64,000 nt of DNA from Thermodesulfobacteriota bacterium (GTDB lineage: Bacteria; Desulfobacterota; Desulfarculia; JACQYL01): NCBI GenBank assembly GCA_963675595.2, contig CAXXLZ010000002.1:736001-800000 (forward strand), in the 5' to 3' direction. Positions 25,947-49,988 of this stretch are shown one piece after another. Every line of letters starts with the position of its first letter. The stretch's first letter is position 1. Both the position numbers and the translations under genes were made by a program. The notes beneath the pieces were generated by a model. The model saw only the letters and a list, made by a program, of their open reading frames with translations, was not told the origin of the DNA and ran no database searches.

Positions 25947-26408
25947 TTATTGGTCGAAATTGACCTCCACCAGGAAGCTGCCGAACTCCGTGTCGAAGGG
26001 AATGGCGACGCACGGACCATTATTGATGTGCCTGATGTTGTGACCCGGACCGGAAATCACCGTGGGCAAAGCCGCTTTCAGGTTGATTCCCATTTCGTCC
26101 AGTTTTCTACGGGCGTCACCCGAGATCATGTTCGTGATCTCACCCACGGCGTCCCTCACCTCGTCCGTGATGCCGTCCACCGCTTCACCAAACATGTTGC
26201 CCACGACTTTTTCTATGCAGGCTTGAGAAAAGGTAATGGAAAGCGATCCGTTGGTTTCCCCGGTAATTCCAATGATTCCGGTGATGTCTCCGATGGCGGT
26301 TTTGTCCTTTTTCAGAAAAGGCTTGCCGGGCCTGGCTTCCACAAAAGCCATGGTGCTGAGTACGTTAACGGCAGCATTCAGGAACGGATTGATCATCTCC
26401 ACTTTCAT
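25947..26408 (-). CDS. cheX: Chemotaxis phosphatase CheX
   Basis: INPFLNAAVNVLSTM, GDITGIIGITG, DAVGEITNMISG, PTVISG. Confidence 0.92.
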   Translation of the reverse strand: MKVEMINPFLNAAVNVLSTMAFVEARPGKPFLKKDKTAIGDITGIIGITGETNGSLSITFSQACIEKVVGNMFGEAVDGITDEVRDAVGEITNMISGDARRKLDEMGINLKAALPTVISGPGHNIRHINNGPCVAIPFDTEFGSFLVEVNFDQ

Positions 26409-26457
26409 TTCTGCACACCTTTCATACCTTTGCCGAACGCCGGTATCCGGATGCCGA

Positions 26458-28322
<1,865 letters not shown>

Positions 28323-28357
28323 GAAGATCGATTTCCGAGATGTCCGACGCCGGTCCG

Positions 28358-30610: not shown

Positions 30611-30763
30611 TTTCCTCAACCCGAGAAGTTCGACAAAAGTCACGTTTCAGTTTATAAACCTTGAAAGGACGCTGCCGGACAAAATAGAATGGAAGCAGTT
30701 TGCCTGATATTCGTCTCGAACGACCATCGTGTCGGCACGAAAGAACAGACTTCTTCATATGCC

Positions 30764-33557: not shown

Positions 33558-33860
33558 ATGGCCGATACACCTCGCAGGAAATACCAAGCCAAAGAAGCCG
33601 TGGCGTTGGGCTACAAACCCCAACAGGACGCCGCTCCCAAAATCCTGGGCAAAGGTAAAGGTTTTGTTGCGGAGAAGATCCTTGAAATTGCGCGGAAACA
33701 CGGCATCCCGATAAAGTACGAACCGGACTTGGTGCAGATACTTTCGAAACTCGACCTGAACGAGCAAATACCTCCTTCGCTCTATCGTGTGGTGGCCGAG
33801 ATATTTGCTTTTGTTTATCGAGTCAACAGAGATTATCCCCGGCGTTCCGGCGGGGATTAA
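33558..33860 (+). CDS. FlhB C-terminal-domain-like protein (EscU/YscU/HrcU switch family)
   Basis: AVALGY...APKILGKGKGFVAEKILEIARKHGIP...IPPSLYRVVAEIFAFVY. Confidence 0.9.
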   Translation: MADTPRRKYQAKEAVALGYKPQQDAAPKILGKGKGFVAEKILEIARKHGIPIKYEPDLVQILSKLDLNEQIPPSLYRVVAEIFAFVYRVNRDYPRRSGGD

Positions 33861-33914: not shown

Positions 33915-35213
33915 TCAGCTCTTGAGTTGTATGGCGGTCTGAAGCATCTCGTTACTGGTTGAAACCACGGTGGAATTGGCGTTGAACCCCGTCTGTGTCA
34001 CGATGAGGCGAACGAGTTCGTTTGCCAAATTAACATTGGACGCCTCAAGACTGAATTGAAGGATGGACCCTCGCCGACCGCTGTCCGCCGTACCCACGGT
34101 GGCCTCGCCCGCAGCCGGCGTAGAGCGAAACAGGGTGTCGCCCGCTTTTTCAAGCCCGTCGTTGCTCACAAACGTGGTTACCGCCACCCGACCTACGCTG
34201 GAAAGATTCGGGTTGTCGTTATCATAGAGCGTGTAAACGGTTCCGTCCTGTCCCACGGTGATTTCCTGAAGTTCTCCCGTCCCATAGCCGTCCTGATTCA
34301 GTTCCTCCAGCAATGGAGGCAAGGTCGACGAAATGATCTCATTGGTGGCGAAGCTCGTGGGATCGTTCGGATCCAATAAGGACCAAGTCAAATTGTATAC
34401 CTGATCGTCCACGGTGAGATCGAAGGTGACGTCCTCAACATTCCCCGCTTCCCCGACTCCGGTCAACGCCCCATCCGTGAAGAAGAAATCGAAAGCCGCC
34501 TCACCCTCGTCCAACGTGGCATCCGTTGAGGTTGGTACGTTGAGATTGGAGACGGCTCCTTCCCCGGGACTAAGTATGACACGCCAGGATGTATCCCCGT
34601 TGGCTGTTCCTTCATTGATCTGGAAATTGATGCCGAGACCGGTGATCCGGTCCACAATGTCGCCGTACACGTCCAAATCAACAGCGGGAGATTGACCGGT
34701 ATCGAAGTTCAGGCGAAGGCCGCTCACGGAAAATTCCGTGGTCTGCTTGCTCAATTGAGTAAACTCCACCTGCAGGTTGCTTAGTTCCTCCTCGAAATCT
34801 CCGGTATCGGGATTGAAGGCGAACCCCTGGACTTTCATATCGGACTGATTAATCAGGACACCTTCATCGTCCAGCAAAAACGATCCGTTTCGGGTGTAAA
34901 AGGTGCGATCCGAATCGTCTTTAACGGTGAAAAAGCCGTCACCGTTAATAGCGAGGTCCGTGCCGTTGTCCGTTTGCGAAAGGGGGCCCTCAAGAAATAC
35001 GGTCTGGAAGGATTGAACCATGCTGCCCGCACCGGTGACGGAAGCGGCTACATTCTGCTTGGTCCGTTGCGCACCGTCCAAGATGTCCGCGAAGTTGCTC
35101 CGCTCGTATTTGAACCCCGTGGTTCCCACATTCGCCACGTTATTGCCGATAACGTCAAGGTCTTTTCCGAACGTATCCAACCCGGTGAATCCCGTCCAGA
35201 TCGAAGAAATCAT
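33915..35213 (-). CDS. flgE: Flagellar hook protein FlgE
   Basis: DVIGNNVANVGTTGFK, DLAINGDGFF, YTRNGSF, QDGYGTGEL, LEASNVNLANELVRLIVTQ. Confidence 0.88.
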   Translation of the reverse strand: MISSIWTGFTGLDTFGKDLDVIGNNVANVGTTGFKYERSNFADILDGAQRTKQNVAASVTGAGSMVQSFQTVFLEGPLSQTDNGTDLAINGDGFFTVKDDSDRTFYTRNGSFLLDDEGVLINQSDMKVQGFAFNPDTGDFEEELSNLQVEFTQLSKQTTEFSVSGLRLNFDTGQSPAVDLDVYGDIVDRITGLGINFQINEGTANGDTSWRVILSPGEGAVSNLNVPTSTDATLDEGEAAFDFFFTDGALTGVGEAGNVEDVTFDLTVDDQVYNLTWSLLDPNDPTSFATNEIISSTLPPLLEELNQDGYGTGELQEITVGQDGTVYTLYDNDNPNLSSVGRVAVTTFVSNDGLEKAGDTLFRSTPAAGEATVGTADSGRRGSILQFSLEASNVNLANELVRLIVTQTGFNANSTVVSTSNEMLQTAIQLKS

Positions 35214-35339
35214 CCCGGACTCCTCTCTCGATTTCGCCAAGCACGAATGCCTGCGAACACACCAAACACCACTCCGCCGAAGGTGAGAAGAACCACGACG
35301 CTCATTCGTCCTTCGGCGAGTTTGCCGTTCTCCTTACTC

Positions 35340-35355
35340 AGCAACATCCATGCCG
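35340..35355 (-). promoter_or_regulatory. Putative sigma54 promoter for flgE
   Basis: CGGCATGGATGTTGCT (GG-N10-GC). Confidence 0.7.
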
Positions 35356-35695
35356 GGATTTTGACGGTTTGTTAAGCCGTTGAAGTCAAACGGCCGCACT
35401 ACTCCAACGCCTCACCCACATCACGTTCTTTCCGACGGGGGAAGCCTTCCCCCTCAAGCCTGAACGGCCGGCGACAGAGCCTTCAAATCGGCCGTGGTCA
35501 TCCGCTTCCTCGTCGAGAAGGGTGTGGCGCAAACAGGACTTTTGACTCCCGCACCTGTTTGGTGCCCCCGATCACGGTAGGCAAATTGTGCTGAATGGGC
35601 AGGATGTACCTGCCGCATGGAGACCGGCAGGCCCTCCGGAAGCCTTCTTTTCAGCGGCCGAGCTCCGGGTCCCCTGCCCTTTGGGCCCTATCCAA

Positions 35696-35711
35696 TGGCA
35701 CGCTACTTGCT
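35696..35711 (+). promoter_or_regulatory. sigma54 promoter for the flgF operon
   Basis: TGGCACGCTACTTGCT, near-consensus -24/-12 element about 40 nt before the flgF ATG. Confidence 0.85.
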
Positions 35712-35749
35712 TTTCTATGGGGCGCCACACCTCAACAAGGAGAAACGCT

Positions 35750-36541
35750 ATGGAGCGGTCGGTCGCCGCGATAACCGCCGGCCTGTTTTCTGAAATGAAG
35801 AAACTGGACGTCATCTCGAACAATCTGGCCAATGTGAATACGCCCGGTTTCAAGCGAGACGAAACGTTCAGCGACTGGATGAGCGTCTTTCTGCTCAATG
35901 CCGAAATCAGTCCGGAAACGGCGGCCAAAGATGCCCTGCGCCTTAAGGAACTGCTCGCAAACCAGGATCAGGACGGCACCCTGGTGGATGCCAGAACCAT
36001 CATGGAGGAAGGCGTTTTCGATCACACGGGTGCTCCCCTCGATGTAGCCCTACAGGGAGACGGCTTCTTCACTCTGCAACAGGGGGACCGTGAAATCTAC
36101 ACACGTAGGGGGCGATTCCAGCTGGACGAGCAGGGCACCCTGGTTTCCACCGACGGCTTTCCCGTAATCGGTGAAAATGATCTCCCCATCCGAATCGACC
36201 GGGAAAACCCCACGGCTCCCTACGAGATCCGGATCGATGAGGATGGAACCGTATACAACAACGACAACGCGGTCGGGAGACTTAAGCTGATCGCCCAGCC
36301 CGAAGGAGAGCGGTTCGCCAAGATCGCCCGCACTTCCTTCGTTCTGCGCCCGGGCGTCGAGCCTCCCACGGCCCTGGGACAAGTACTTGTCAAACAAGGC
36401 TACCTTGAGACGAGCAACGTCAGCGTCGTCAAGGAAATGACGGACATGATGAATGCGTACAGGACCTTTGAGAGCTATCAGAAAATAATGACTACCATGG
36501 ACGATCTCAAAGGCCGATTGATCAGTTCCGTCACCGCATAA
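35750..36541 (+). CDS. flgF: Flagellar basal-body rod protein FlgF
   Basis: [48 protein letters not shown]; AGGAG RBS. Confidence 0.9.
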   Translation: MERSVAAITAGLFSEMKKLDVISNNLANVNTPGFKRDETFSDWMSVFLLNAEISPETAAKDALRLKELLANQDQDGTLVDARTIMEEGVFDHTGAPLDVALQGDGFFTLQQGDREIYTRRGRFQLDEQGTLVSTDGFPVIGENDLPIRIDRENPTAPYEIRIDEDGTVYNNDNAVGRLKLIAQPEGERFAKIARTSFVLRPGVEPPTALGQVLVKQGYLETSNVSVVKEMTDMMNAYRTFESYQKIMTTMDDLKGRLISSVTA

Positions 36542-36566: not shown

Positions 36567-37355
36567 ATGATTCGAACCCTGTTTTCGGCAGCTACCGGAA
36601 TGCAGGCACAGCAGCTGAACATGGACGTCATTTCCAACAACCTGGCCAACGTCAACACCACCGGGTTCAAGAAATCACGCCCGGATTTTCAGGATCTGAT
36701 CTACCAGAACCTGCAGCTGGCCGGGATGCCCAGTTCCACCACCACCCAGGTGCCCGCCGGCATCCAGGTCGGTTTGGGTGTGCGTCCTGCGGCGATCCAG
36801 CGTCTTCATCTGCAGGGAGATTTCATCAAAACCGACAACTCGCTTGACCTTGCAATCTCCGGACAAGGTTTCTTTCAAATCCAACACCCCAACGGAGAAA
36901 CTTTGTATACCCGTTCCGGTGCCTTTAAGCTCAACGCGGACGGACAAGTGGTCAATTCCGACGGATGGATGCTGCTTCCCGAGATCACCATCCCCGAGGA
37001 CGCCGAAGAGATCAACGTGGCCTCCGACGGAACGGTGAGCGTGCGGCAGGGCGGGCAGACGACGGCGACGCAAGTCGGAAACATTGAACTGGTCACCTTC
37101 GCCAATCCCACAGGTCTCGAAAGTGTCGGACGAAATAATTTCCGCCCCACGGACGCTTCCGGAGATCCCATTGCGGGCATACCCGGTGAGAACGGTGTGG
37201 GAGAAATCGAACAAGGATACCTCGAGCTTTCCAACGTATCGGTGGTGGACGAGATGGTGGCCATGATCGTGGCGCAACGCGCCTACGAAGCCAACAGCAA
37301 GGCGGTCCAGACCGGCGACCAGCTTCTGAGCCTCGCCAACGGTCTGAAACGGTAA
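36567..37355 (+). CDS. flgG: Flagellar basal-body rod protein FlgG
   Basis: [16 protein letters not shown]...FQDLIYQ...GIQVGLG...[11 protein letters not shown]. Confidence 0.96.
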
Positions 37356-37370
37356 CCCGCAAATCCGGAG

Positions 37371-38372
37371 TTGATTGAGCTTATGAAGCCCCGCAATCGT
37401 CATTTACGGACCGTTCTGTGGAGCCTGACCTTGGCGGCCCTGACATTATGGAGCGTCCGGCTCCATGCCGGCTCCCCGCCGGACGCCGGAGTCGAGCTCA
37501 AGCAGGCCGCCGCGGTGACGCATCACCTGGTGCTTCTATCGGACGTTGCCGAGATAACCAGCCTCGATCCTTCTCTAAAGAAGGCGTTGGAAAACTTGGC
37601 CGTGGACGCGTCTCCCGGCCTCTGCAGGGAAGCCCGACTCGATGCCGAAAAAGTGCGGCAAAGGATCACCGACGATTTTCCCAGGCTCCATATTCAGGTT
37701 TCAGGAGCCTCTTCGGTCCAAGTGATCCGCTCATGCCGAACCGTTACGGAATCCGAACTCGAAGAGGCGGGCAAGAAGTACATTTTCTCTCATATGCCCT
37801 GGAAAGAGGAAACGGTCGAAGTGACCGACGTGAGGGTCCCGGAGTTGGTTTTCCCGGACCTGCCGGTCAGCGTGGAATTCTCTGAGTCGACCGGAGAGGA
37901 CTTTCTCGGAAACATCAGCCTGATGGCGCTGATCAAACACAATGGAGAGACGCTTAGGGCCGTGCGATGGACGGGAAGGATTTCCGTGTTCGAAAACGTA
38001 GTCGTGGCTGCGAGGACGCTGGACAGAGACCAGTTGATTACCGCCGATGACGTAACTTTGCGACAAACGGACCTGTCACAACTCCACACCGAGCCCCTCA
38101 GATCGCTGGACGGCCTCGCGGGCAAGCGGGTAATACGTCGAATTCCCGAAGGAAATCTGGTCCGTCACGAAGATTTGGACCGGCCTCTCCTGGTGCAAAG
38201 AGGCGATCGAGTGTTCCTGAAAGCCCAAACCGCCATGATCGAGGTCACGGCCACGGGCGTCGCTCTGGACGATGGAAGCCTCGGAGACGCGGTGAGGGTT
38301 CGGAACCTGTCGTCAAAGAGAGAAATCGTCGGACTCGTTGCCGGCCCCCATTGGGTCAAGGTGGTATTCTGA
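37371..38372 (+). CDS. flgA: Flagellar P-ring formation chaperone FlgA
   Basis: Signal peptide, SAF domain, LVQRGDRV...GVALDDGSLGDAVRVRNLSS. Confidence 0.9.
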   Translation: MIELMKPRNRHLRTVLWSLTLAALTLWSVRLHAGSPPDAGVELKQAAAVTHHLVLLSDVAEITSLDPSLKKALENLAVDASPGLCREARLDAEKVRQRITDDFPRLHIQVSGASSVQVIRSCRTVTESELEEAGKKYIFSHMPWKEETVEVTDVRVPELVFPDLPVSVEFSESTGEDFLGNISLMALIKHNGETLRAVRWTGRISVFENVVVAARTLDRDQLITADDVTLRQTDLSQLHTEPLRSLDGLAGKRVIRRIPEGNLVRHEDLDRPLLVQRGDRVFLKAQTAMIEVTATGVALDDGSLGDAVRVRNLSSKREIVGLVAGPHWVKVVF

Positions 38373-39106
38373 TGAAAAAAAGCGTGTCGGCACAAGCAAC
38401 TTTCCGGAAATGGGGCTTTCTTATTTGCGTTTCTTTGATTCTGACCGCCTCCTGCTCCTCCGAAGATCGGAACCGACGTCGGGATTATTTCGGTCAGGTG
38501 CCGGAGCCCGTGGAAACATTTCCTCAAAAAGAATATCCCGGTTCTTTGTGGAAAGAACGCAACTCGGAGAGTATTCTCTTCATGGATCACAAGGCGGGTC
38601 AGATTAACGACATCGTTACCGTGCTCATTGTGGAAAACTCATCCGGTCAAGGAGTTTCGAACTCCAAGCTGGAGAAGACGTCGGACGTGCAGTTCGGTGT
38701 GGACGGCGCCTTGGGCTTGCCCAGTTCCCTCGGCATGAACAATTTCCTGGGATTGGGCTCTCCGTTCCAGCCTTCGGTGTCGGCGGAAACCACCAATGAT
38801 TTTGAAGGAAAAGCAAGAACTACCAGGACGGGAAGCCTCAGCGGCACCATCACCTGCCGCGTAGTCAAACTATTTCCCAACGGGAACCTCGAGATTCGCG
38901 GTTCCCGCGAAATCACCATCAATCGTGAACAGCAGTTCATCATGCTGAGCGGAGTCATCCGTCAGGAAGACATTGATTCGCTCAACGTGGTTCGATCGGA
39001 CCGTATCGCGGATGCGCGAATTGAATACTACGGTGAAGGGGTTCTCGCGGACAAGGAGACCCCGGGGTGGCTCGCCCGTGTACTGGATTGGGTGTGGCCG
39101 TTTTAG
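38372..39106 (+). CDS. flgH: Flagellar L-ring protein FlgH
   Basis: Lipobox LTASC; LFMDHKA..INDIVTVLIVE; PNGNLEIRGSREITIN; IADARIEYYG; ends WVWPF. Confidence 0.95.
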   Translation: MKKSVSAQATFRKWGFLICVSLILTASCSSEDRNRRRDYFGQVPEPVETFPQKEYPGSLWKERNSESILFMDHKAGQINDIVTVLIVENSSGQGVSNSKLEKTSDVQFGVDGALGLPSSLGMNNFLGLGSPFQPSVSAETTNDFEGKARTTRTGSLSGTITCRVVKLFPNGNLEIRGSREITINREQQFIMLSGVIRQEDIDSLNVVRSDRIADARIEYYGEGVLADKETPGWLARVLDWVWPF

Positions 39107-39134
39107 GATTGAACTGAAGAGAGTGTGCCTATCC

Positions 39135-39566
39135 ATGAAAAAGATTTCGAGGAGTGAATTTGTAAGCCTATGGGCGGTCATGCTGAGCGCCGTCCTCCTG
39201 TTCGCACTTTCGGGATGCGGCGGCGGAGCCACGGGTTCCGAGGGGAACGACGGGCAAGACACTTTGAGGCTCACCGTGGTCCCGGACCGGATCAATATCA
39301 GTGATGGGGGCAGTTGCTCGGTGAACGTCACCCTGTGGGACGCGAACGCGGAACCAATCATCGGTACGGTGTACTTGGCTTCGACCTTCGGGACGCTGGG
39401 CGCGTCCTCCGTCACCACGGTGGCCGATCCCGGCGGGACCGCTGCAAGCGCCGCCACCACATTGACTCCCAGCGACACCACCACTGTGGGCAACGCCGTG
39501 GTCACCGCCACTTTCGGTTCCATCACGGTTTGGGTATCGGTTGAATTCTACAAGACCCTCGGCTGA
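39135..39566 (+). CDS. Lipoprotein with a single Ig-like (invasin/Big_1-like) domain
   Basis: LSGC-GGG lipobox; Thr/Val-rich beta pattern (LTVVPDRI..DG..SVNVTLWDAN..PI...STFGTL...ATTL...AVVTAT). Confidence 0.75.
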   Translation: MKKISRSEFVSLWAVMLSAVLLFALSGCGGGATGSEGNDGQDTLRLTVVPDRINISDGGSCSVNVTLWDANAEPIIGTVYLASTFGTLGASSVTTVADPGGTAASAATTLTPSDTTTVGNAVVTATFGSITVWVSVEFYKTLG

Positions 39567-39587
39567 GAACGGTTGGAGGAACCTTCC

Positions 39588-41012
39588 ATGAAGCGATGCA
39601 ACACCGAACACCTGTTCTTCCTGATTCTGATCTTGAGCATTTCCGCATTGGGCTGCAGTGGAGGCGGAGGCGGATCCACCTCCGTGGTGACTCCCCAGGG
39701 CCCCCAGATCAATCCTCCCGAGGTCACCCTGTACTTCGGAGACGAGATACTCCTCAGCGTTTCGGGCGGAGCAGCCCCTTACACCTGGTCGTCCACCAAT
39801 CTCACTGTAGGCAAAGTGGATCCGGACCGAATCTCCACCGACGGACGTTCCGCCTATTTCGTTGCCAATACCAAGTTGCCCGAAGAGACGACCGACAACA
39901 TGACGGCCACGGTTATCGCCATGGACGCCAACGGCAGATCGGCTCAGGCCACCATCACCATGATTCTGAACCTTCTTCTGGTGACCCCCGGTCAAGCCAC
40001 CATCGCCCTGGACTCTCTGACCACTCCGAGCATCCGCTTCTCCGTCACCGGAGGAGAGTCCCCTTATTATTGGACGGCGGATAAGCCCTACCTGGCTGAT
40101 CTTTATCCGAACGGCGACGGTTCCATCGTAACCGTGTTTCCCACGCAGGCCGGCATTCTGAGTCTGACCGTCACGGACTCGCGGAATACTCAGTCCCCGG
40201 ACGGCGTCACGTTGACGATCGTCGACGAAGCGCCCGGCATCACCCCCTCCATGATCACCCTATCGTCGGAAACGGACGCCGGGGCATACACATTCCTGTT
40301 TTCCGGGGGTACGCAACCCTATGTTCTCTACACGTCGGACCCGAATATTCTCGATGTTCCACAAATTGCTCAAGACGCCACATCCGCGGATGTGACCGCC
40401 CTACAGGTGGGAGAGGCCGATTTGATTCTGGAGGACGCCACGGGCCAGAAGGCGGTGGCCTCCGTGACCGTGACCGATTTGCAGGATACGATCACCATCA
40501 GTCCCTCCCTGGCCGTGATCAGTCCCGGGGATTACGTTACCTTCCAAGCGCTCCACGGGCTCAGTCCCTATTACTGGACCAATGAGAACCCTGAGCTGGG
40601 TCAGTTGTTTACCAGCGGCACGGGAGACAGGGTGGCTGATTTTTATGCCGGGAACGACGCCGGTGTGGCTTCCATCGTTCTGGAAGACAGCCGACAAGCC
40701 CAGTCGGTGGCTCGCATTACCATTGAAGACGCACTCCGGATTCTTCCCGGCTTGGTGACCACTCAGCAGGGCACGGCTCAAGCCCTGAGCTTCATCGTTC
40801 AGGGCGGAGTACCGCCTTATTCCGCCTTCCTCAGCGACTACAGGTTCGGCACCGTAACTCAGCCGACGCTTAATACGGATCGTAATCAGTACGAATTCAC
40901 CGTGACCACCTCGGCCTCGGCCGCTGCCATGACTTGGCAAGACATCGTGGAAGTGTACGACGTGGGAGGCTTGAAGGCCACCTTGGACGTCGAGGTGGTC
41001 GCCGCAAACTAA
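39588..41012 (+). CDS. Lipoprotein with 5 tandem Ig-like repeats
   Basis: ALGC-SGGGGG lipobox; five repeats of roughly 85-95 aa with core VSGGAAPYTW, VTGGESPYYW, FSGGTQPYV, LHGLSPYYW, VQGGVPPYS. Confidence 0.8.
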   Translation: MKRCNTEHLFFLILILSISALGCSGGGGGSTSVVTPQGPQINPPEVTLYFGDEILLSVSGGAAPYTWSSTNLTVGKVDPDRISTDGRSAYFVANTKLPEETTDNMTATVIAMDANGRSAQATITMILNLLLVTPGQATIALDSLTTPSIRFSVTGGESPYYWTADKPYLADLYPNGDGSIVTVFPTQAGILSLTVTDSRNTQSPDGVTLTIVDEAPGITPSMITLSSETDAGAYTFLFSGGTQPYVLYTSDPNILDVPQIAQDATSADVTALQVGEADLILEDATGQKAVASVTVTDLQDTITISPSLAVISPGDYVTFQALHGLSPYYWTNENPELGQLFTSGTGDRVADFYAGNDAGVASIVLEDSRQAQSVARITIEDALRILPGLVTTQQGTAQALSFIVQGGVPPYSAFLSDYRFGTVTQPTLNTDRNQYEFTVTTSASAAAMTWQDIVEVYDVGGLKATLDVEVVAAN

Positions 41013-41080
41013 AACAGCGTTGCATTCATCTTCCGGGGAACCTGCTCCGGAGCACGTGAGACTACAAATCGGGGGAGAAA

Positions 41081-43246
41081 ATGAAAAGAAGGACCTTTGG
41101 TTTCGCCATCTTGTCGGTTATGTTCCTGCTCATCGCCGGATGCAGCGGAGGAGGTGGGTCGGACTCCGAGCCCACCCAGCCTCCAACGCAGAAACTCGTC
41201 ATTTATTCTCCCAACGGTCTGTCCCTCTTTTACGGTGAGGAACTCAAACTCAGCGTAAGCGGCGGCACTCCGCTCTACCAGTGGTCCCTGAGAAGCTCCG
41301 GTGATCAGACCTGGACCCAGATCGATGACAACCGGACCGCACCGGACGGATCGGTCATCTACGTTACCGCTTCGGACTATCTTTGGGGCATTGGTCCCAC
41401 GGTCGAGGTGGTGATCACCGTGACCGACAGCATCGGAAATTGGGGTACCATCACGGTGCAGGTCACGGACATGTTTCCAAGCGTGATTCCGGCCAAAGCG
41501 ACGGTGCCCCTGGACGTGGCTTCGGCCACGACGATGCGCTTTACGGCGTCCGGAGGGACGCCCCCCTACTACTGGGTCCTCGATAAACCCTACTTGGCGC
41601 AGGGCGTTCCCGACAGTGAGGGGGACACCTTGATCCTCCAGCCGGTGGCTTCGGGAAACCTGAAGATCACCCTGTTCGACGCCAAGAACCTGGCTTCCTC
41701 GGCCACTCTGCAAATCGTATCGGGCACGCCCAAAATCGTACCCAACAAAGTGACGCTCAGTCTCGGGGAATCCATCACGTTGAGGGCCAGCAACGGAACA
41801 CCTCCCTACTACGACTGGTATCTCACGGACCCCTCCGTGGGGACTCTGGACCCTCCGTCCGGCGGGTGGGGAGACCTTTCCGAAGCGGTCTTCACCGCCA
41901 GGAGAATCGGCAACACCGAAGTGTACCTCGACGACGATTTGGGTGAACGCGCGTACGCCACGGTGACCGTGATCCAGAACCAGACCATGCTCACACCCAG
42001 CGAAGCCAATATCGCTCCCGGAGAGGAGCTTATCCTGACGGCCAAGTACGGCCTCACCCCTTACTACTTCTTCAACGGCGACCAGAACGTGGGCGAGTTG
42101 ACCGAACTTTCCTACAACCAGGTTTTGTTTGAAGCCAAAGATGCGGGCATCACCGTCATCAGGGTGGAGGACAGCAGAGGCCAGGAAGACACTTGCACGA
42201 TTATGGTCAGCAACGCCTTTCAGATTTATCCCTTGAGCTTAAAGGGAAGCCCGGGTGAGGTGGTCAAATTCTTCCTGTATGGCGGTCAGACACCCTACGA
42301 CGTGCTCGTAAACGACGTGTCCGTTGGCTCGGCCGTGATCAAGAACGGCAACGAGGTGCATTTCACCATTGCGGCCTCACAGAATCCCGAGGACACCGCC
42401 TATCCGGACGTCGTCGAGGTTTACGACGCAGATGGGCTCAGGGCGACCGCCGAAGTGGTAGTGGCGGGCGTGGGATGCGAACTTCACGCGGAACCGTCCA
42501 CTGCGATCGGCAATCCCGGCGACGAGGTGGAATTCCTGGTGCTCTGCGGTACCGGAGATTCCTACAGCGTGACCACCATGGACGCCACTCTGGTGGAAAC
42601 CCCGATACAGCAGCCCACCGGCAACTTGGTGACCGTCACCATCAAGTCCAACGCCGTACCCGGTCTATATCCGGAGGTGATCCGTATCGCGGACGAAGAA
42701 AACAATGTGATCTACGCCGGTATCGAAGTCGTCGAAAAGCTGGCGGTAACCCCGTCCTCCGCATCGGGCGCTCCCAACGAAGAGCTGCAGTTCGTCGTGT
42801 CCGGAGGAAAAGCCCCCTACACCGCCCAGCTTTCGAGTAATACGTCGGCAACGGCGTCGGTAAGCGGAAGCGTGATCACTCTAAAGATTGCCAACAGCCC
42901 GACCTCCAACAGCCTCAGCATGATCGTACAGGACGCCGCCGGCCAGATCGTCTCCGTGCCCGTAACCATCACAAACCCGACCTGCACTTTTGAGCTGAGT
43001 CCCAGCTCGCAGACCGGAACTGCGGGTAACACCCTGGCGTACCAGGCGGTTTGCGGCACCTCCCCGTATCTGGCCACCATTCTGAATTTCACGGCCATCG
43101 ATTCGAGTGTGGACGCCATTTCAATCACGGGAAACCTGGTGACGGTCAAGATATCCGGCACCGCGGCACCCGGCACCTACTCCAACGCCTTTGTGATCAC
43201 CGATGCCAATGCTCAGTCGGCTTTCGGCAGCATCGTGGTCCAGTAG
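41081..43246 (+). CDS. Lipoprotein with 8 tandem Ig-like repeats
   Basis: IAGC-SGGGG lipobox; eight repeats with cores SGGTPLYQW, SGGTPPYYW, SNGTPPYY, YGLTPYY, YGGQTPY, CGTGDSY, SGGKAPY, CGTSPY. Confidence 0.82.
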   Translation: MKRRTFGFAILSVMFLLIAGCSGGGGSDSEPTQPPTQKLVIYSPNGLSLFYGEELKLSVSGGTPLYQWSLRSSGDQTWTQIDDNRTAPDGSVIYVTASDYLWGIGPTVEVVITVTDSIGNWGTITVQVTDMFPSVIPAKATVPLDVASATTMRFTASGGTPPYYWVLDKPYLAQGVPDSEGDTLILQPVASGNLKITLFDAKNLASSATLQIVSGTPKIVPNKVTLSLGESITLRASNGTPPYYDWYLTDPSVGTLDPPSGGWGDLSEAVFTARRIGNTEVYLDDDLGERAYATVTVIQNQTMLTPSEANIAPGEELILTAKYGLTPYYFFNGDQNVGELTELSYNQVLFEAKDAGITVIRVEDSRGQEDTCTIMVSNAFQIYPLSLKGSPGEVVKFFLYGGQTPYDVLVNDVSVGSAVIKNGNEVHFTIAASQNPEDTAYPDVVEVYDADGLRATAEVVVAGVGCELHAEPSTAIGNPGDEVEFLVLCGTGDSYSVTTMDATLVETPIQQPTGNLVTVTIKSNAVPGLYPEVIRIADEENNVIYAGIEVVEKLAVTPSSASGAPNEELQFVVSGGKAPYTAQLSSNTSATASVSGSVITLKIANSPTSNSLSMIVQDAAGQIVSVPVTITNPTCTFELSPSSQTGTAGNTLAYQAVCGTSPYLATILNFTAIDSSVDAISITGNLVTVKISGTAAPGTYSNAFVITDANAQSAFGSIVVQ

Positions 43247-43262
43247 AACCGAATGAATACAC

Positions 43263-43294
43263 GGGACGTCCGAATACCGGTTTTCGGACGTCCC
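43263..43294 (+). other. Perfect 12-bp intergenic stem-loop without U-tract
   Basis: GGGACGTCCGAA-N8-TTCGGACGTCCC. Confidence 0.7.
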
Positions 43295-43393
43295 ACACAC
43301 AAGGCATAGTCCGGACCGCGTCGCCATTTTCCTTAACGCCTTATGGGTAACGGCGACGGCTCGGATCCGGGCGTCATATCAAGGAAGCGCCTC

Positions 43394-44524
43394 ATGACGT
43401 TTAGAGCCGGCTCGAAATCGCAACGACTGGGATTTGCGGTCTACACCGTTCTCCTGCTGCTGTTTTTCTGCGGCTCGATATCCAATGCGGCGGAGGTCCG
43501 CCTGAAGGACATCGCCCACTTCGAAGGATTCCGTCCGAACCAGTTGATCGGCTACGGCGTAATCGTCGGACTCGACGGCACCGGAGACGGAACCCGGGGG
43601 GGATTTACGCGTCAAATCTTATCCAACATGATGTACAAGTTGGGCGTCACCATCCCCGCCAGCGCCATCCAAGTGAAAAATACGGCCACCGTCATGGTCA
43701 CCGCCGAGCTTCCCCCCTTTGCCAAGGCCGGGACCCGGATCGACGCCGTGGTCTCTTCTCTGGCGGATGCAAAAAGTCTACAGGGAGGCACGTTGTTGAT
43801 GACGCCCTTGCGGGCGGCGAGTCGCGAGATCTATGCCGTAGCCCAGGGGCCGGTTTCCATCGGCGGTTTCGGAGCGGCCGGCGGCGGAGCAACGGTTCAA
43901 CAGAACCATTTGACTGTCGGTGTTGCGGTCAACGGGGCTCTCATCGAAAGAGATTTGCCTTTGAACCTCCCGGGACGCGTGCTGAAGCTCCACTTGTATC
44001 ACCCGGACTTCACCACGGCGCACCGGACTGCGGAAAGCATCAACAAGCACTTTCAGACCGACATGTCCACCGCCGTCGATCCCAGCGAAATCCGCATCAG
44101 CGTTCCCGAGGAGTTCCATGAAAACATCGTGGAGTTCATTTACCAGGTTGAAAACGTCAAAGTGGAACCCGACACCCGTGCCGTGGTGGTTATGAACGAG
44201 AGAACCGGAACGGTGGTCATGGGAGAAAACGTCCGGGTTTCCACGGTGGCCGTGGCCCACGGGAACCTCAACATCGTGATTCGAGAGACCCCGGAAGTCT
44301 CGCAGCCCGAGCCTTTCAGCGAAGGCACCACGGTGGTGGTTCCTCGGACCGATATCTATGTCACCGAGGACAACAACAAGTTGCTCTTGGTGCCCGAAGG
44401 GGTCACCATCGGTGACGTTGTCCGAGCGCTGAACGCCATCGGAGTCACTCCACGGGATCTCATCTCCGTCATCGTAGCCCTCAAAGAGGCCGGAGCGCTC
44501 CAGGCGGACCTGAAATTCCTCTAA
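43394..44524 (+). CDS. flgI: Flagellar P-ring protein FlgI
   Basis: RLKDIA..EGFRPNQLIGYGVIVGLDGTGD, DAKSLQGGTLLMTPL, VVMNERTGTVVMG, ALKEAGALQA; start uncertain. Confidence 0.96.
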   Translation: MTFRAGSKSQRLGFAVYTVLLLLFFCGSISNAAEVRLKDIAHFEGFRPNQLIGYGVIVGLDGTGDGTRGGFTRQILSNMMYKLGVTIPASAIQVKNTATVMVTAELPPFAKAGTRIDAVVSSLADAKSLQGGTLLMTPLRAASREIYAVAQGPVSIGGFGAAGGGATVQQNHLTVGVAVNGALIERDLPLNLPGRVLKLHLYHPDFTTAHRTAESINKHFQTDMSTAVDPSEIRISVPEEFHENIVEFIYQVENVKVEPDTRAVVVMNERTGTVVMGENVRVSTVAVAHGNLNIVIRETPEVSQPEPFSEGTTVVVPRTDIYVTEDNNKLLLVPEGVTIGDVVRALNAIGVTPRDLISVIVALKEAGALQADLKFL

Positions 44525-44553: not shown

Positions 44554-44907
44554 ATGTCCTACGATTTCTTGTTGCATTTTAGCCCCGAAGCGGCAAAGAT
44601 GAGTGAAGGTGGAGAGTCGGCGGCTCTGAAAAAGGCCTGTCAGGAGTTCGAGTCCTTTTTTTGGGAAATACTCCTCAAAGAGATGCGCAAGACCGTACCG
44701 GAAGGCGGCCTCCTTGGGAATTCCCTGGAAAACGATCTTTACACTTCCATGTATCACCAGGAGCTTTCCGTGGAATTGAGCCGACGTGGCGGCCTCGGAC
44801 TAACGGAACTGCTCGAGGGAAGCCTGGAAGGCACCCTTGAAAAGCACGACGGGGGTGCGGACGAGTCCGAGGAAGAAGAAACCGTCGGGTCGGAAACAAT
44901 TAGATGA
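44554..44907 (+). CDS. flgJ: FlgJ rod-binding protein (no muramidase domain)
   Basis: LKKACQEFESFF..ILLKEMRKTV...YTSMY...GGLGL. Confidence 0.85.
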   Translation: MSYDFLLHFSPEAAKMSEGGESAALKKACQEFESFFWEILLKEMRKTVPEGGLLGNSLENDLYTSMYHQELSVELSRRGGLGLTELLEGSLEGTLEKHDGGADESEEEETVGSETIR

Positions 44908-45074: not shown

Positions 45075-45392
45075 ATGAAAATCGACGACACCATAATCCA
45101 GCAGACGGATGTGTTAAAACAACAGGTCCGGTCGTCGGAGACGGGAAAGAACCAGGAACAGCCGGGCGGCGAGCGTATCGCCCCGTCTCCTGACATCGAA
45201 GAAAACGTGGAAATCTCTAGCAGAGCTCAAGAGAGACGGTCGGCTCGCGATGCGTTGAGTTCCGTGCCGGAAGTCCGCGCCCAAAAAGTCGCGGAGGTCC
45301 GCAAGAAGATCGAGGAGGGTACCTACGAGGTGAACAGCGGCAAAATCGCAGAAAAACTCATCCGGGAGTCCCTGTTCCATAACATCGCCTGA
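45075..45392 (+). CDS. flgM: Anti-sigma28 factor FlgM
   Basis: MKI...VEISSRAQ...VPEVRAQKVAEVRKKIEEGTYEVNSGKIAEKL. Confidence 0.93.
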   Translation: MKIDDTIIQQTDVLKQQVRSSETGKNQEQPGGERIAPSPDIEENVEISSRAQERRSARDALSSVPEVRAQKVAEVRKKIEEGTYEVNSGKIAEKLIRESLFHNIA

Positions 45393-45599: not shown

Positions 45600-48500
45600 T
45601 CACTGAGGCTCGGAAACCCGGAAATTCTTCTCCAACCGTCCTTTCCGTGCCTTGACGGCTGTAATGACAGTGAGCATGAACTCGGCGATGTCGAAATCCG
45701 GCGGTACGACCGTGACCGTCGTCCAGTTAACGGTATTCCCGCATTGGTTCCTCAATTCAATGGTGTAATCCGTGGTTTCCGATGGATACACCGCGACCGA
45801 ACCACCCGTCGGTGACACCTGGCCGACTCCGGGACTTATGATCGCCTCATCCCCGCCCGTTCCGCTCCAGGACAGAACCGCACCGTTTCCCGCTACCACA
45901 TCCCCGCCGGGACCGGAAAAGAAGTCGATGACCGGCAGATCGCAGGTCAAGACTTCGATGGAGGCCTGTACGTCTCCGCATGAACTCTCAACCACCAATG
46001 TATAGGTTTCCGGCGCCGACGCCTCCAGTGATACGACCCCGACCCCCGGGTCCACCTGCCCCACTCCGGGTGATATTTCGGCGAGTTCTCCTCCTATGGC
46101 GACCCAGTCCAACTGGAAAACGGTTCCGGTGGGCACGGGGTCGGAGGGCCCTTGAAAAACCACGATTTCGGGCGGATCGCAGGCGTCCAATATCGGCGGG
46201 TCGTCCGGTTCCGACGTCGAGGGATTGGCCATGCCGGAAGCCTGGTACTCGACCAGTGCATCCACTACATGCTCACCTACCTCTCCTTCGGGCACATGCA
46301 CCACGAAAACCGCCTCCAGCGGGCTGGACAATACTTTGGACGTCCAGAATATCCCTTTGGACGGGTTCACTGTGTTGATTCCCGTGCCGGAAACGCTTTC
46401 GAGGGTCCACCCGTCGGGTAGAAGCGGTTTCCAAAGAATGGAAAGGAGCGGATCCTGAAAGGAGGCGCGAAAGGTGAAGGTCACCTCACGGCCCGGAGGA
46501 TACGTGTCGGGACCTTCGATGGAAATCGAAGGAGTGCTCTGCGGCGTTAAGGGAGGACCCGACAGGGCGACGTCGGGCTGTGGTATCAACGGAGCGAAAC
46601 CGTCCACCCCCGAAGCATCGGGCTGATACCCTCCCGCGCGCCAGTAGGCAAGCACTCGATTGATCTCCGTGCCGTCGATATCCCAGGCCGGCGCTTGAAA
46701 ATCCGCGGTATGAGTCCCGCAGGCCGTTGCTCCTACGGTTCCCGGCTGATATCCGTCGGGTCCGGCCCCGCAACGGTACGCTCCGGCATTCCAGTAAGAA
46801 ATCACACGGGTCACTTCCGCATTGTCGATGATGAAGTCGGGCCCGTTGTAATCCGCATCGTGGTAAATAGGTGTTTCCGCCAACACGAGGGGGTCCGGAA
46901 GAGCGACGTCCACGGAAGGCAAAGCCATTCCCACCAATTGAAAGTCGATGGTCGATCCGATGTTTTGAGCCCCGGTCTGTCCTCCGGGAACGGCGACTTG
47001 GTATTCGAACACCACTGGATTGTTCGCAACGGGAGGCGTAAAAGTAACCACTCCTCCCAAGACCACCGGATTTCCATTCCCGGCCGCCGCCGTCACCCCG
47101 GTGAGGGTCCATCCCGCGGGCAACACGGGCGTCCACTGTAGGGATTGAATCGTCAGTCCGGCTTGATAGCTGAATTCACACGCCACAACCGCCGTGCCTG
47201 GAGACGGGTAACCGGCCGAAGAGTGGACCGAAGCCGTCGCATAAGTAATTTCCGGAAGTTGCAGCGGGTGGGGATTCGCCCACGTAAGCGCGGGATTTAC
47301 CATGCCGTCGATTTGGTACTCCACCTCCGCGCTAAGGTAATGGGTGCCGGATTCACCGCCCGGGACGTTGACGATATACGTAAACTGCACCGGATTCCCG
47401 GAGAAGGCATCCAGAAAGACGATTTCCCCTCCGCTCACCTGAGGGTTTCCATCGCCCGAAGCCCCCACCGGATCCAAGGTCCAACCGGCGGGTAATTGCG
47501 GTCTCCAAAGAAGCGAAAGCAGGCTCCTCCCCTGGGGTACCTGAAACGTGCAGGTGATCACGGCGGTGCCGGGAGTTTCATATCCGGGCGAGGAATGTGC
47601 GGCCGCGATCCCTGGAGGATACCCGCAGGTCTTGAAAAGGAACACGTCGCTTTGACCGTTGGCGTCTCCCGAAACCAGGTTTCCGGCGGAAGAACCGAAC
47701 ACCATGTGAAGTCCGTCGCTCGCCATGGACGGATAAAGCGAAGCACCGTCAGGCTCTCCCAACGTTGAAGAGGCGCTCACTCGAGACGTTTCACCGGTTT
47801 GACGATCCCGAACGAACACATCCCATTTTTCGTTGGTATCACCGGGCAACAGATTGGTCGATCCCGACGAGAACACCACGTAGCGGCCGTCGGAGGACAT
47901 GGATCGCCTTCTGGAACCCCTGCTCTCCCCGTTCCCCTCGGAACCGTCGTAGGCCAAGCTCACTCGCTCGGTGATCCCGGTTTGAAGGTCTTTCAGAAAT
48001 ACGTCGGCTTTGCCGTTGGCATCTCCGACCGTCAGGTTGGAAGCATTGGAATAGAACACCACGTAGCGACCGTCCAGGGACAGGGAGGGGTATTCCGAGA
48101 ACCCTCCGGCCTGTCCTCCCGCGGAAGAGACGGAAACACGGACGGTTTGCGCGGTACTGCGGTCGTGCACGAAGACGTCCGCAGAGCCGTTGGTGTCCCC
48201 CGCCACCAAATTCGTGGCCTCGGAGACAAAAGCCACGTAGCGGCCGTCCGCGGATAGCGAGGGAAACCTGCATGCGCCGTTTCCCTGGACTCCGATCGAT
48301 GAAACGCTCACTCGCGTCGTCTGGGCGAGAAGCAGATCACGAACGAATACATCGGACTTGGTGTTTGTGTCGCCGGGAACCAGATTGGAAGCCGCGGACG
48401 TGAAAGCCACGTAACGGCCGTCCGAGGAGACCGACGGCTGAAAGGAAGCCTGGTTGCCCTGCCCGCCTGCGTCGGTCAGACTGACCCGAACAGTGACGGC

Positions 48501-49865
48501 GGTTTGCCGGTCATGCAGGAATACGTCACTGTGACCGTTATCGTCCACGGCCACCAGATTGGTCGCTTCCGAAGTGAACGCGACGTATCGGCCGTCCGGT
48601 GAAAGGTCGGGATCCGAGCTTTGATCGTTCCCCTGAACCCCGGCGGAAGATACGCTGACTCGGGTCACCGCGGCGGTTTCCATATCCCGCACGTAGACGT
48701 CCGTGCCGGCGGCTCCCGCAACCAAGTCTGCGGCATTGGAGGAAAATGCCACGTAACGCCCGTCCGCAGACACCACGGGAGAACCGCTTCCTCCGTCGGC
48801 GGCAGCACCGCTCGCGGCCACACTCACCGCCTGGATTTCCGAGGCGCACGCCGGTCCCAGACTTCTGAAGGCGCCGTCACCCTCCGTGCCTGCAAACACC
48901 TTCGAAGCATCCCAAGGGTCAACGGCCAGAGTCCGAACCGGTACCAGGGGCGTGGGAAGGCCGGCATTGTCTGCGGACCACAGGGCCCCACCGTTGGAAG
49001 TGACAAAAACGCCGCCGCCGTCGGTGCCCGCATACACCACGCCGGGTTGAATGGGGTCCGCCGCGAGAGAATGCACATTCACGTCGGTAAGTCCCGTATT
49101 CACCTGGTTCCAGGTGAGGCCGGCGTCTGTGGACTTATAAATACCCCAGGTGTCGGTCCCGGCGTAAACATTGTTCGAGTCGTGAGGGTCCACCGCCAGG
49201 CAGGTCACGGAGACGGCCGTGCTGATCGGCGTCCAGATCAAACCCGCGTTCGTACTTTTGTAGACTCCGTAGGTTTCGGATCCGGCGTACACGACATTGG
49301 AGTCCGCAGGGTCCACGGCCAAGGCGTAGATATCGGTTAAGGGCAGAGTCAGACCGGTGTTGACGGCATTCCACGACGTCCCGCCGTCCGTACTCTTGAA
49401 GATTCCTTCCCCTTCCGTCCCGGCATAGAGGACCTGATCGTCGCCGGGGTCCTCAGTCAGCGCGAAAACTTGAGGCAAGAAACCCGGAAGCCCCGTATTC
49501 ACGGCGTTCCAGTCCATCCCCCCGTTTACACTTTTGAAAACTCCTCCCGTTTGGGTGCCTGCATACAGAGTGTTGGGCAAGGTGGGAGACACAGCCAGCG
49601 TATGGATGTTGTTGTCCGCCAAGCCGTTGTTCACGGCCGTCCACCAAGTCCCGCCGCTCGAGGAACGAAACACGCCTCCACCCCAGGTGGCGGCGTACAT
49701 CACGGACGGAACATGCGGCTCGGGGATCAGGGACATCACTTCCAGGTCGGTCAAACCTTGGTTAATCGCGACCCAGTCCGCCCGACTCTCCGAGACGAAC
49801 AAGGCAAAACCGGCAAGGAAGCACAACAGTATTGAAAATGGGCGACGTACACGGCGGGTGTTCAT
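45600..49865 (-). CDS. Large secreted mosaic protein: BNR propeller + TolB-like propeller + three beta-sandwich repeats + EF-hand/dockerin-like duplication + Ig-like tail
   Basis: Signal peptide; repeats AGT.G.GV.KS..GG..W.AVN.GL; repeats S.DGRYVAF.S.A.NLV.GD.N...DVF; three W.P.LP.GWTL domains; two H.AD...ID..E..RV..YW.AG.Y motifs. Confidence 0.85.
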   Translation of the reverse strand: MNTRRVRRPFSILLCFLAGFALFVSESRADWVAINQGLTDLEVMSLIPEPHVPSVMYAATWGGGVFRSSSGGTWWTAVNNGLADNNIHTLAVSPTLPNTLYAGTQTGGVFKSVNGGMDWNAVNTGLPGFLPQVFALTEDPGDDQVLYAGTEGEGIFKSTDGGTSWNAVNTGLTLPLTDIYALAVDPADSNVVYAGSETYGVYKSTNAGLIWTPISTAVSVTCLAVDPHDSNNVYAGTDTWGIYKSTDAGLTWNQVNTGLTDVNVHSLAADPIQPGVVYAGTDGGGVFVTSNGGALWSADNAGLPTPLVPVRTLAVDPWDASKVFAGTEGDGAFRSLGPACASEIQAVSVAASGAAADGGSGSPVVSADGRYVAFSSNAADLVAGAAGTDVYVRDMETAAVTRVSVSSAGVQGNDQSSDPDLSPDGRYVAFTSEATNLVAVDDNGHSDVFLHDRQTAVTVRVSLTDAGGQGNQASFQPSVSSDGRYVAFTSAASNLVPGDTNTKSDVFVRDLLLAQTTRVSVSSIGVQGNGACRFPSLSADGRYVAFVSEATNLVAGDTNGSADVFVHDRSTAQTVRVSVSSAGGQAGGFSEYPSLSLDGRYVVFYSNASNLTVGDANGKADVFLKDLQTGITERVSLAYDGSEGNGESRGSRRRSMSSDGRYVVFSSGSTNLLPGDTNEKWDVFVRDRQTGETSRVSASSTLGEPDGASLYPSMASDGLHMVFGSSAGNLVSGDANGQSDVFLFKTCGYPPGIAAAHSSPGYETPGTAVITCTFQVPQGRSLLSLLWRPQLPAGWTLDPVGASGDGNPQVSGGEIVFLDAFSGNPVQFTYIVNVPGGESGTHYLSAEVEYQIDGMVNPALTWANPHPLQLPEITYATASVHSSAGYPSPGTAVVACEFSYQAGLTIQSLQWTPVLPAGWTLTGVTAAAGNGNPVVLGGVVTFTPPVANNPVVFEYQVAVPGGQTGAQNIGSTIDFQLVGMALPSVDVALPDPLVLAETPIYHDADYNGPDFIIDNAEVTRVISYWNAGAYRCGAGPDGYQPGTVGATACGTHTADFQAPAWDIDGTEINRVLAYWRAGGYQPDASGVDGFAPLIPQPDVALSGPPLTPQSTPSISIEGPDTYPPGREVTFTFRASFQDPLLSILWKPLLPDGWTLESVSGTGINTVNPSKGIFWTSKVLSSPLEAVFVVHVPEGEVGEHVVDALVEYQASGMANPSTSEPDDPPILDACDPPEIVVFQGPSDPVPTGTVFQLDWVAIGGELAEISPGVGQVDPGVGVVSLEASAPETYTLVVESSCGDVQASIEVLTCDLPVIDFFSGPGGDVVAGNGAVLSWSGTGGDEAIISPGVGQVSPTGGSVAVYPSETTDYTIELRNQCGNTVNWTTVTVVPPDFDIAEFMLTVITAVKARKGRLEKNFRVSEPQ

Positions 49866-49988
49866 GGTCTTCTCCACACCATGAAGTATCGGTCGGATGC
49901 TTCGAGAGGTTGAGGAGAATCCTCGGCCGGATCGGAAGCAACGAACTTGCGGGCCGTACACACCGGCCCTCCATACGGCAACCCGGCA

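Follow-up and report, generated by a model that had tools for sequence, protein, structure and literature searches.

Lineage-specific accessories in the periplasm and at the outer membrane have been added to flagellar motors time and again, and most of those characterised to date come from a few cultured pathogens. Examples are FlgP, a lipoprotein, FlgO and FlgT, known from the basal disk and H ring in motors of the Vibrio and Campylobacter type; these proteins are outer-membrane-associated, and their genes lie in flagellar clusters. Conserved genes without a known function that are embedded in such clusters have often proved to encode motor parts, as flgT, flgO and flgP did. Here we describe three consecutive open reading frames (ORFs), ORF1, ORF2 and ORF3, that encode predicted lipoproteins made of immunoglobulin-like (Ig-like) domains and that separate flgH, the L-ring gene, from flgI, the P-ring gene, in a Thermodesulfobacteriota bacterium (GTDB lineage Bacteria; Desulfobacterota; Desulfarculia; JACQYL01). 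The window analysed is a stretch of 64,000 nucleotides, positions 736,001 to 800,000 of the forward strand of contig CAXXLZ010000002.1 (NCBI GenBank assembly GCA_963675595.2), and all coordinates below count from its first letter. We propose, with a probability of roughly 0.4 and on the basis of gene context, that the three products are outer-membrane-tethered accessories of the L/P-ring region.

The closest described counterparts are FapH of Helicobacter pylori (HP0838) and YecR of Salmonella, which the accessible text of PMC11756786 presents as lipoproteins located at the L ring or outer membrane. According to the same text, the FapH gene shares an operon with a motor accessory gene, and FapH is not needed for motility in soft agar and protects the outer-membrane barrier during rotation, a similar role being suggested for YecR (PMC11756786). 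If it is flagellar, the trio would resemble them in being a set of accessory lipoproteins near the L ring. Unlike the trio, with its one, five and eight Ig-like domains, FapH and YecR are single small proteins; no similarity between them and the trio was found in sequence or fold, and the accessible text of PMC11756786 does not describe them as encoded between flgH and flgI. The trio likewise differs from FlgP, FlgO and FlgT, to which it has no Pfam or NCBIfam match at E values up to 10, and the top Foldseek matches are Ig-domain proteins. Membership of the FlgP, FlgO, FlgT or YecR families was found neither in Pfam or NCBIfam nor among the Foldseek PDB matches listed, which bears out the impression, formed by eye in the preliminary description of the locus, that these proteins do not resemble FlgT, FlgO or FlgP. 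Full-text searches of the literature outside subscription journals and supplements yielded no title or abstract that describes an insertion of genes at the flgH-flgI junction or motor parts that are Ig-like lipoproteins. The trio and its immediate surroundings are as follows.

38372-39106, + strand: flgH, L-ring lipoprotein with lipobox LTASC (Pfam FlgH PF02107, 5e-56; NCBIfam; 244-aa form P0028)
39135-39566, + strand: ORF1, predicted 143-aa lipoprotein with one Big_1 Ig-like domain (lipobox, PDB profile, AlphaFold 2, Foldseek)
39588-41012, + strand: ORF2, predicted 474-aa lipoprotein with five Big_2-like Ig domains (lipobox, collinearity with ORF3, family alignment)
41081-43246, + strand: ORF3, predicted 721-aa lipoprotein with eight Ig-like domains (lipobox, AlphaFold 2, Pfam BiPBP_C, family alignment)
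43263-43294, + strand: hairpin with a 12-bp stem (folding energy and shuffles)
43391-44524, + strand: flgI, P ring (Pfam FlgI PF02119, 3e-136); likely start at an ATG with ribosome-binding site AAGGAAG

Three co-oriented lipoprotein genes had been placed between flgH and flgI at the outset, and both this order and the gaps are exact: 28 nt between flgH and ORF1 (39107-39134), 21 nt between ORF1 and ORF2 (39567-39587) and 68 nt between ORF2 and ORF3 (41013-41080). A purine-rich ribosome-binding site lies ahead of the ATG of each ORF. A longer flgI reading frame opens at 43343; 43391 is the most likely start, and with it the gap between ORF3 and flgI measures 144 nt. That the ORFs could be products of chance or misassembly is virtually impossible, given length-matched homologues in independent assemblies, confident folds and the ribosome-binding sites; the homologues and the fold predictions, presented below, refute the notion of chance ORFs.

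In all three proteins, a signal peptide is followed by a lipobox and a glycine-rich tether, namely LSGC-GGGATG in ORF1, ALGC-SGGGGGS in ORF2 and IAGC-SGGGGS in ORF3. The bacterial lipobox consensus is [LVI][ASTVI][GAS]C. The lipobox cysteine is invariant in the alignment of the ORF1 family (13 sequences) and nearly invariant in that of ORF2 and ORF3 (11 sequences). When the whole window was scanned in six frames, ORF1, ORF2 and ORF3 were the only proteins in which a lipobox is joined to a glycine linker. By these features the three qualify as bacterial lipoproteins, that is, substrates of Lgt and LspA, with lipidation predicted. In E. coli, sorting to the outer membrane follows the rule that the residue at position +2 is not Asp. 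By this rule, ORF1-3, with Gly or Ser at +2, would be sorted to the outer membrane.

ORF1 is modelled as a single beta-sandwich (AlphaFold 2 (AF2), mean predicted local distance difference test (pLDDT) score 88.9). The profile of its family matched intimin (1f00, 4.1e-8), 6tpl (6e-8) and invasin (1cwv, 5e-5) in the PDB, with InvE and InvD matching as well, and Foldseek ranked 1f00, 5ldy and 5n40 first for the model (intimin, InvD and InvE; template modelling (TM) score about 0.5). Because the profile and Foldseek agree on these proteins, we regard ORF1 as a lipid-anchored Ig-like domain of the Big_1 type. As a single sequence, ORF1 matched neither Pfam Big_1 (PF02369) nor any other Pfam family at E values up to 10, and it shows no similarity to ORF3. 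It differs from intimin and invasin in lacking a beta-barrel anchor, a LysM domain and a lectin-like tip at the C terminus: one domain sits on the lipid anchor. An exhaustive HMMER search of 1.84 billion cluster representatives returned 15 homologues at E values up to 1e-3, including three with values no higher than 1e-10. With few exceptions these homologues are lipoproteins with a length of 134-167 aa, and the top matches are 60, 57 and 48% identical to ORF1. The family alignment used 12 of the 15 homologues, a 37-aa fragment and two longer proteins having been left out.

ORF2 and ORF3, as judged from their sequences, are paralogues built of Big_2-like domains. They are collinear over about 436 residues (33% identity, E 5e-62), ORF2 corresponding to domains D1-D5 of ORF3, and ORF3 is modelled as eight consecutive beta-sandwiches (AF2 pLDDT 79.9), the orientation of the domains being undefined (predicted TM score 0.35). 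Pfam recognised a single BiPBP_C domain in ORF3 (residues 142-202; 35.0 bits against a cutoff of 26.8), while the same family scored below the cutoff in ORF2 (22.7 bits), and Pfam Big_2 (PF02368) matched neither protein. The Pfam families that did match, weakly, were BiPBP_C, Ig_NUP210 and T2SS-T3SS_pil_N. Precomputed Pfam assignments of the ORF2 and ORF3 homologues name PF26182, PF26918, PF24902 and PF06832, and the look-alikes of ORF2 in the atlas are repeat proteins of the Big_2 clan. The combined ORF2/ORF3 profile and the ORF3 fold matched NUP210 Ig domains, phage decoration proteins, intimin, titin, DSCAM, the GhpA grappling hook and S-layer proteins. NUP210 was the best PDB match of both the profile (1e-7) and the ORF3 model (5.5e-29). 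This eukaryotic protein, itself a string of Ig-like domains, forms a ring at a membrane pore; the likeness is one of Ig-like domain type only, with no common function implied. ORF3 carries cysteine pairs in D6 (residues 466 and 489) and D8 (residues 635 and 658). The D6 pair is kept in the orthologues, which points to an oxidising compartment and fits a periplasmic or extracellular location.

Homologues of ORF2 and ORF3 were sought in a word-indexed collection of 5.8 billion proteins, with a word filter that may miss weakly similar sequences. For ORF3, eight were found at E values up to 1e-3: one near-identical copy, four orthologues that are 57-58% identical (638-662 aa) and three weak matches. 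For ORF2 there were 21, comprising a 98% identical copy, four orthologues at 54-59%, the ORF3 family, the 446-aa protein P0014 (29% identical, E 2.6e-31) and 13 further matches at E 3.8e-10 or weaker that carry Big_2-clan Pfam labels. One homologue of ORF2, P0013 (HY788_20805), has 338 aa and starts at domain 2 of the alignment; a mis-called start or a truncated gene may explain this. In the tree, each of the two families is a clade with strong support, the stems measuring 0.8-0.97 and the within-family branches at most 0.46. Two supported clades on such long stems indicate that the duplication that gave rise to ORF2 and ORF3 is older than the split of these genomes and that both paralogues have been kept. 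P0014 is a third deep branch of this unrooted tree and may have split off before or after the duplication.

The two ends of ORF3 have fared differently. D1-D5 are 62-73% identical to those of the orthologues, as compared with 39-44% for D6-D7, which lie farther from the anchor. The last domain, D8 (residues 632-721; 42974-43243), is present in the window protein only, without a counterpart in any of the four orthologues. Its closest relative is D6 (local score 114, against 23-87 for the other domain pairs), and it looks like a recent internal duplication. Thus, the count of one, five and eight Ig-like domains given in the preliminary description is right for the proteins of the window, whereas it does not carry over to the orthologues of ORF3, which have seven domains and no D8.

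One possible explanation for these features is that ORF1-3 are adhesins, or other surface or periplasmic envelope proteins, that are co-regulated with the flagellum and expressed with it but are physically separate from it, which might, for instance, link motility with attachment. Big_1 and Big_2-like domains build intimin, invasin and other adhesins as well as S-layer proteins, the anchor-distal domains evolve fastest and vary in number between seven and eight, as would be expected of a ligand-binding tip or stalk, and no similarity to any flagellar protein is seen. The Lig lipoprotein adhesins of Leptospira, in which a lipobox is followed by tandem bacterial Ig-like domains, have the same general plan of lipobox and Ig-like string; unlike the trio, they carry Pfam Big_2 repeats and are not known to be encoded in flagellar operons. 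Against an adhesin function stands the location of the genes, which lie inside a predicted early sigma-54 rod and ring operon, exactly between the L- and P-ring genes, and not in a late or separate unit. Moreover, a tip that might bind a ligand, for instance a lectin domain, was not recognised: all eight domains of the ORF3 model are plain sandwiches. On balance, we consider such co-regulated adhesins somewhat unlikely.

The remaining genes of the flagellar string and the promoter that precedes it bear on how the trio is expressed. From 35.7 to 45.4 kb, the + strand is a single string of flagellar genes by ORF calls, Pfam and NCBIfam, which in addition to those given above includes the following.

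35696-35710, + strand: sigma-54 -24/-12 element TGGCACgctacTTGC (TGGCAC-N5-TTGC), exact consensus match, 40 nt before the flgF ATG
35750-36541, + strand: flgF, proximal rod (Pfam Flg_bbr_C, LlgE_F_G_D1 and Flg_bb_rod); start revised to an ATG with ribosome-binding site AAGGAG
36567-37355, + strand: flgG, distal rod (Pfam)
37371-38372, + strand: flgA, P-ring chaperone (Pfam ChapFlgA, 1e-32)
44554-44907, + strand: flgJ, rod-binding domain only (Pfam Rod-binding, 8e-14)
45075-45392, + strand: flgM, anti-sigma-28 (Pfam FlgM, 8e-19)

The position of the trio downstream of a sigma-54 promoter of flgF, as claimed from the first, is upheld by this element, which is the sole exact consensus match in the window. 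When up to one mismatch is allowed, 3.2 matches are expected by chance in the window and the count observed is not above this level; the weight of the element, therefore, rests on its position before flgF. No sigma-70-like site was found on the + strand between 35000 and 46000, and no sigma-54 match was seen in the gap between ORF3 and flgI. The stop codon of flgA and the ATG of flgH overlap by one base. In strand, gaps and promoter, the trio fits an operon that runs from flgF, flgG, flgA and flgH to flgI, and a hairpin of -25.7 kcal/mol follows ORF3. It begins 16 nt past the ORF3 stop and consists of a perfect G+C-rich 12-bp stem with an 8-nt loop (z score -2.9; 2 of 200 shuffled sequences fold equally well). 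Since no U-tract follows, it is not a canonical intrinsic terminator, and a scan for consensus terminators gave none at this place; terminator-like sites numbered 12, against 12.0 expected from shuffles. The earlier statement that the region holds no terminator is, thus, correct for canonical terminators, whereas it had missed this strong hairpin without a U-tract. Lying between ORF3 and flgI, the hairpin might stabilise the RNA, mark a site of processing or act as an attenuator. A repeated element of the repetitive extragenic palindromic (REP) type was ruled out because the hairpin is unique in the window, in which Rfam matched no RNA family. We infer that ORF1-3 are embedded in a transcription unit extending from flgF, flgG, flgA and flgH through flgI and flgJ to flgM, with cotranscription through the ORF3 hairpin predicted.

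The composition of ORF1-3 was judged to lie inside the range of the other genes of the window in GC content, GC content at third codon positions (GC3) and codon usage (GC3 0.71-0.76 and codon distance 0.104-0.120, compared with 0.61-0.74 and 0.069-0.162 for 22 other window genes). Pfam detected no transposase in the window, no direct or inverted repeats of note flank the trio, and a tblastn search of 72,556 plasmids gave no match to ORF1 and one weak match to ORF2 (a Runella protein sorted by the type IX secretion system, 26% identity). Taken together, the lack of repeats, the native codon usage and the absence of plasmid relatives led us to reject a mobile-element origin, and the original remark that the insert shows neither a transposase nor a compositional break holds on both counts.

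Close homologues of the trio are few, and the named orthologues all come from metagenome-assembled genomes (MAGs) labelled "Deltaproteobacteria bacterium". Linkage of these homologues to flagellar genes was approached through contig size: the placement of a FlgH and an ORF2/ORF3 homologue on a shared contig is inferred from an equal size of the longest contig, not read from gene order. Four assemblies gave such a match, as follows.

13,280 bp: FlgH P0031 (69%), with ORF2/ORF3 homologues P0002 and P0011
165,881 bp: FlgH P0032 (69%), with ORF2/ORF3 homologues P0003 and P0010
63,452 bp: FlgH P0034 (75%), with ORF2/ORF3 homologues P0004 and P0013
11,052 bp: FlgH P0038 (55%), with the ORF2-like P0014 (29%)

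Among FlgH clusters at 69-77% identity, three of seven were size-matched, or three of the four with contigs longer than 2 kb. No size partner was found for P0033 (118,631 bp), P0012 (19,570 bp) or P0005 (9,247 bp). The locus tags of the homologues of ORF2 and ORF3 are consecutive in one NCBI MAG (HY788_20805 and HY788_20800). The search for homologues in flg operons that the preliminary description had called for turned up FlgH on size-matched contigs in four assemblies and neighbouring paralogues in one MAG, all within a narrow lineage.

A distant baseline was provided by a genome scan for FlgI, which yielded 24 loci of diverse phyla, the best of them 51% identical. In 13 of the 24, flgH and flgI adjoin, with no more than about 300 nt between them, in agreement with the original premise that the two genes are usually adjacent; where flgH lies upstream on the same strand (14 loci), the pair is contiguous in all but one. 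In seven loci of the Rhodobacterales type, flgH is found on the opposite strand at a distance of about 9 kb, and three of the 24 loci show no flgH. A locus from a Cohaesibacter MAG (L004, 8712-9776) has a 1.5-kb gap between flgH and flgI that holds two opposite-strand ORFs unrelated to ORF1-3, one of them DksA/TraR-like by eye.

These observations raise the question of whether ORF1-3 are passengers, that is, an old insertion of envelope-lipoprotein genes between flgH and flgI that has been tolerated and whose function lies apart from motility. The contiguous pair is the ancestral state (13 of 24 FlgI loci, and 13 of the 14 with flgH upstream on the same strand), the insert is limited to a narrow lineage, and between ORF3 and flgI lie a hairpin and 144 nt in all, each of which would agree with a passenger origin. 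On the other side, codon usage is fully ameliorated with no traces of mobile elements, both paralogues and ORF1 have stayed intact at 54-60% identity, and a 29%-identical ORF2-like gene has the same 11-kb contig size as a 55%-identical flgH. In addition, splitting genes whose products are needed in equal amounts would probably come at a cost, except where the insert leaves their expression undisturbed. We therefore hold passenger genes to be an unlikely explanation, and less likely than the adhesins considered above.

The reading that we prefer, accessories of the L/P-ring region, draws on the position of the genes, on the predicted lipoprotein nature that their products have in common with FlgH, on a composition native to the genome, on the length of time for which the three have been kept, and on the precedent of FapH and YecR. 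One could envision the following arrangement. The trio would be a lineage-specific three-lipoprotein module produced from a sigma-54-driven mRNA shared with the rod, L-ring and P-ring genes. An N-terminal lipid would anchor each protein in the inner leaflet of the outer membrane, as for FlgH, and the proteins would assemble beside the L/P-ring bushing, ORF1 as a short one-domain piece and ORF2 and ORF3 as strings of five and of seven to eight Ig-like domains. From the typical length of an Ig domain, ORF2 would measure about 20 nm and ORF3 about 30 nm if extended. Such strings may serve as spokes, collar or struts around the ring, in presumed contact with FlgH or FlgI, and would probably hold the bushing firm in the outer membrane or shield the membrane as the motor turns. 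The structure predicted for a complex of FlgH (residues 36-251) and ORF1 (residues 29-143) scored 0.00, below the mark, which speaks neither for nor against binding. A more specific scenario is that the trio forms a new kind of collar, spoke wheel or cage of graded-length Ig-like strings around the bushing, recruited from adhesin-type domains and unrelated to FlgP, FlgO, FlgT, PflA, PflB, FapH or YecR; we regard this as somewhat unlikely. Of the co-expressed set of rod-like lipoproteins put forward in the preliminary description, the genes themselves have stood up as real, native, embedded in the predicted operon and retained together, with products predicted to be lipoproteins, whereas the collar, cage or disk that they would form around the LP ring is conjectural, the domains being generic and the distal ones variable.

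Several points weigh against a place for the trio beside the rings. Big_1 and Big_2-like domains are generic modules of adhesins and surface proteins, the look-alikes of ORF2 and ORF3 being widespread surface or repeat proteins; the number of domains differs among relatives (seven versus eight), and a variable distal end such as that of ORF3 would be at least as natural in the tip of an adhesin as in a structural component that has to fit. Neither Pfam, NCBIfam nor the Foldseek PDB matches listed revealed similarity of the trio to known motor proteins, and no lineage-specific insertion in FlgH that might act as a docking site was seen. The hairpin after ORF3 could split the transcripts. Any retention of gene order at 69-77% FlgH identity is weak evidence, and in the FlgH tier of 52-59% identity just one of nine clusters was size-matched (one of seven with contigs longer than 2 kb). 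Searches of the 24 distant FlgI loci with tblastn, and with profile hidden Markov models over 3,813 ORF segments, found no homologue of ORF1-3. The absence of the insert from these loci and the small number of close homologues indicate that it is derived and limited to a narrow lineage; as far as its relatives show, the family appears confined to uncultured organisms of that lineage.

The anatomy of the trio is clear, conserved and undescribed, and if it is flagellar, it would be a lineage-specific outer-membrane accessory made from new material. It would then represent an independent origin of an accessory, from Ig-like lipoprotein strings in an uncultured Desulfobacterota-like lineage, and an example of adhesin-type domains recruited into a rotary machine. 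If instead the three proteins are adhesins or passengers, the flgH-flgI pair would tolerate a conserved 4-kb insert, which is useful to know for operon-based annotation.

Several neighbouring features were also observed. FlgJ has 117 aa, and Pfam detects no muramidase domain in it. Upstream of the flagellar string lies fliK, followed directly by a stand-alone 100-aa ORF (33558-33860) whose match to FlhB is confined to the C-terminal region (262-335 in Bac_export_2). An flgE-like gene of 441 aa (33915-35240, - strand) is divergent from flgF, and the intergenic region of about 500 nt between them (35241-35749) contains the sigma-54 element. About 5 kb upstream of the flagellar genes is a chemotaxis cluster, cheX-cheB-cheR-cheA with a cheW domain (25947-30643, - strand). 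At its other end, the string is closed by a gene convergent with flgM (45600-49961, - strand), which encodes a 1,453-aa repeat protein with PD40 and sortilin/Vps10-type beta-propeller repeats.

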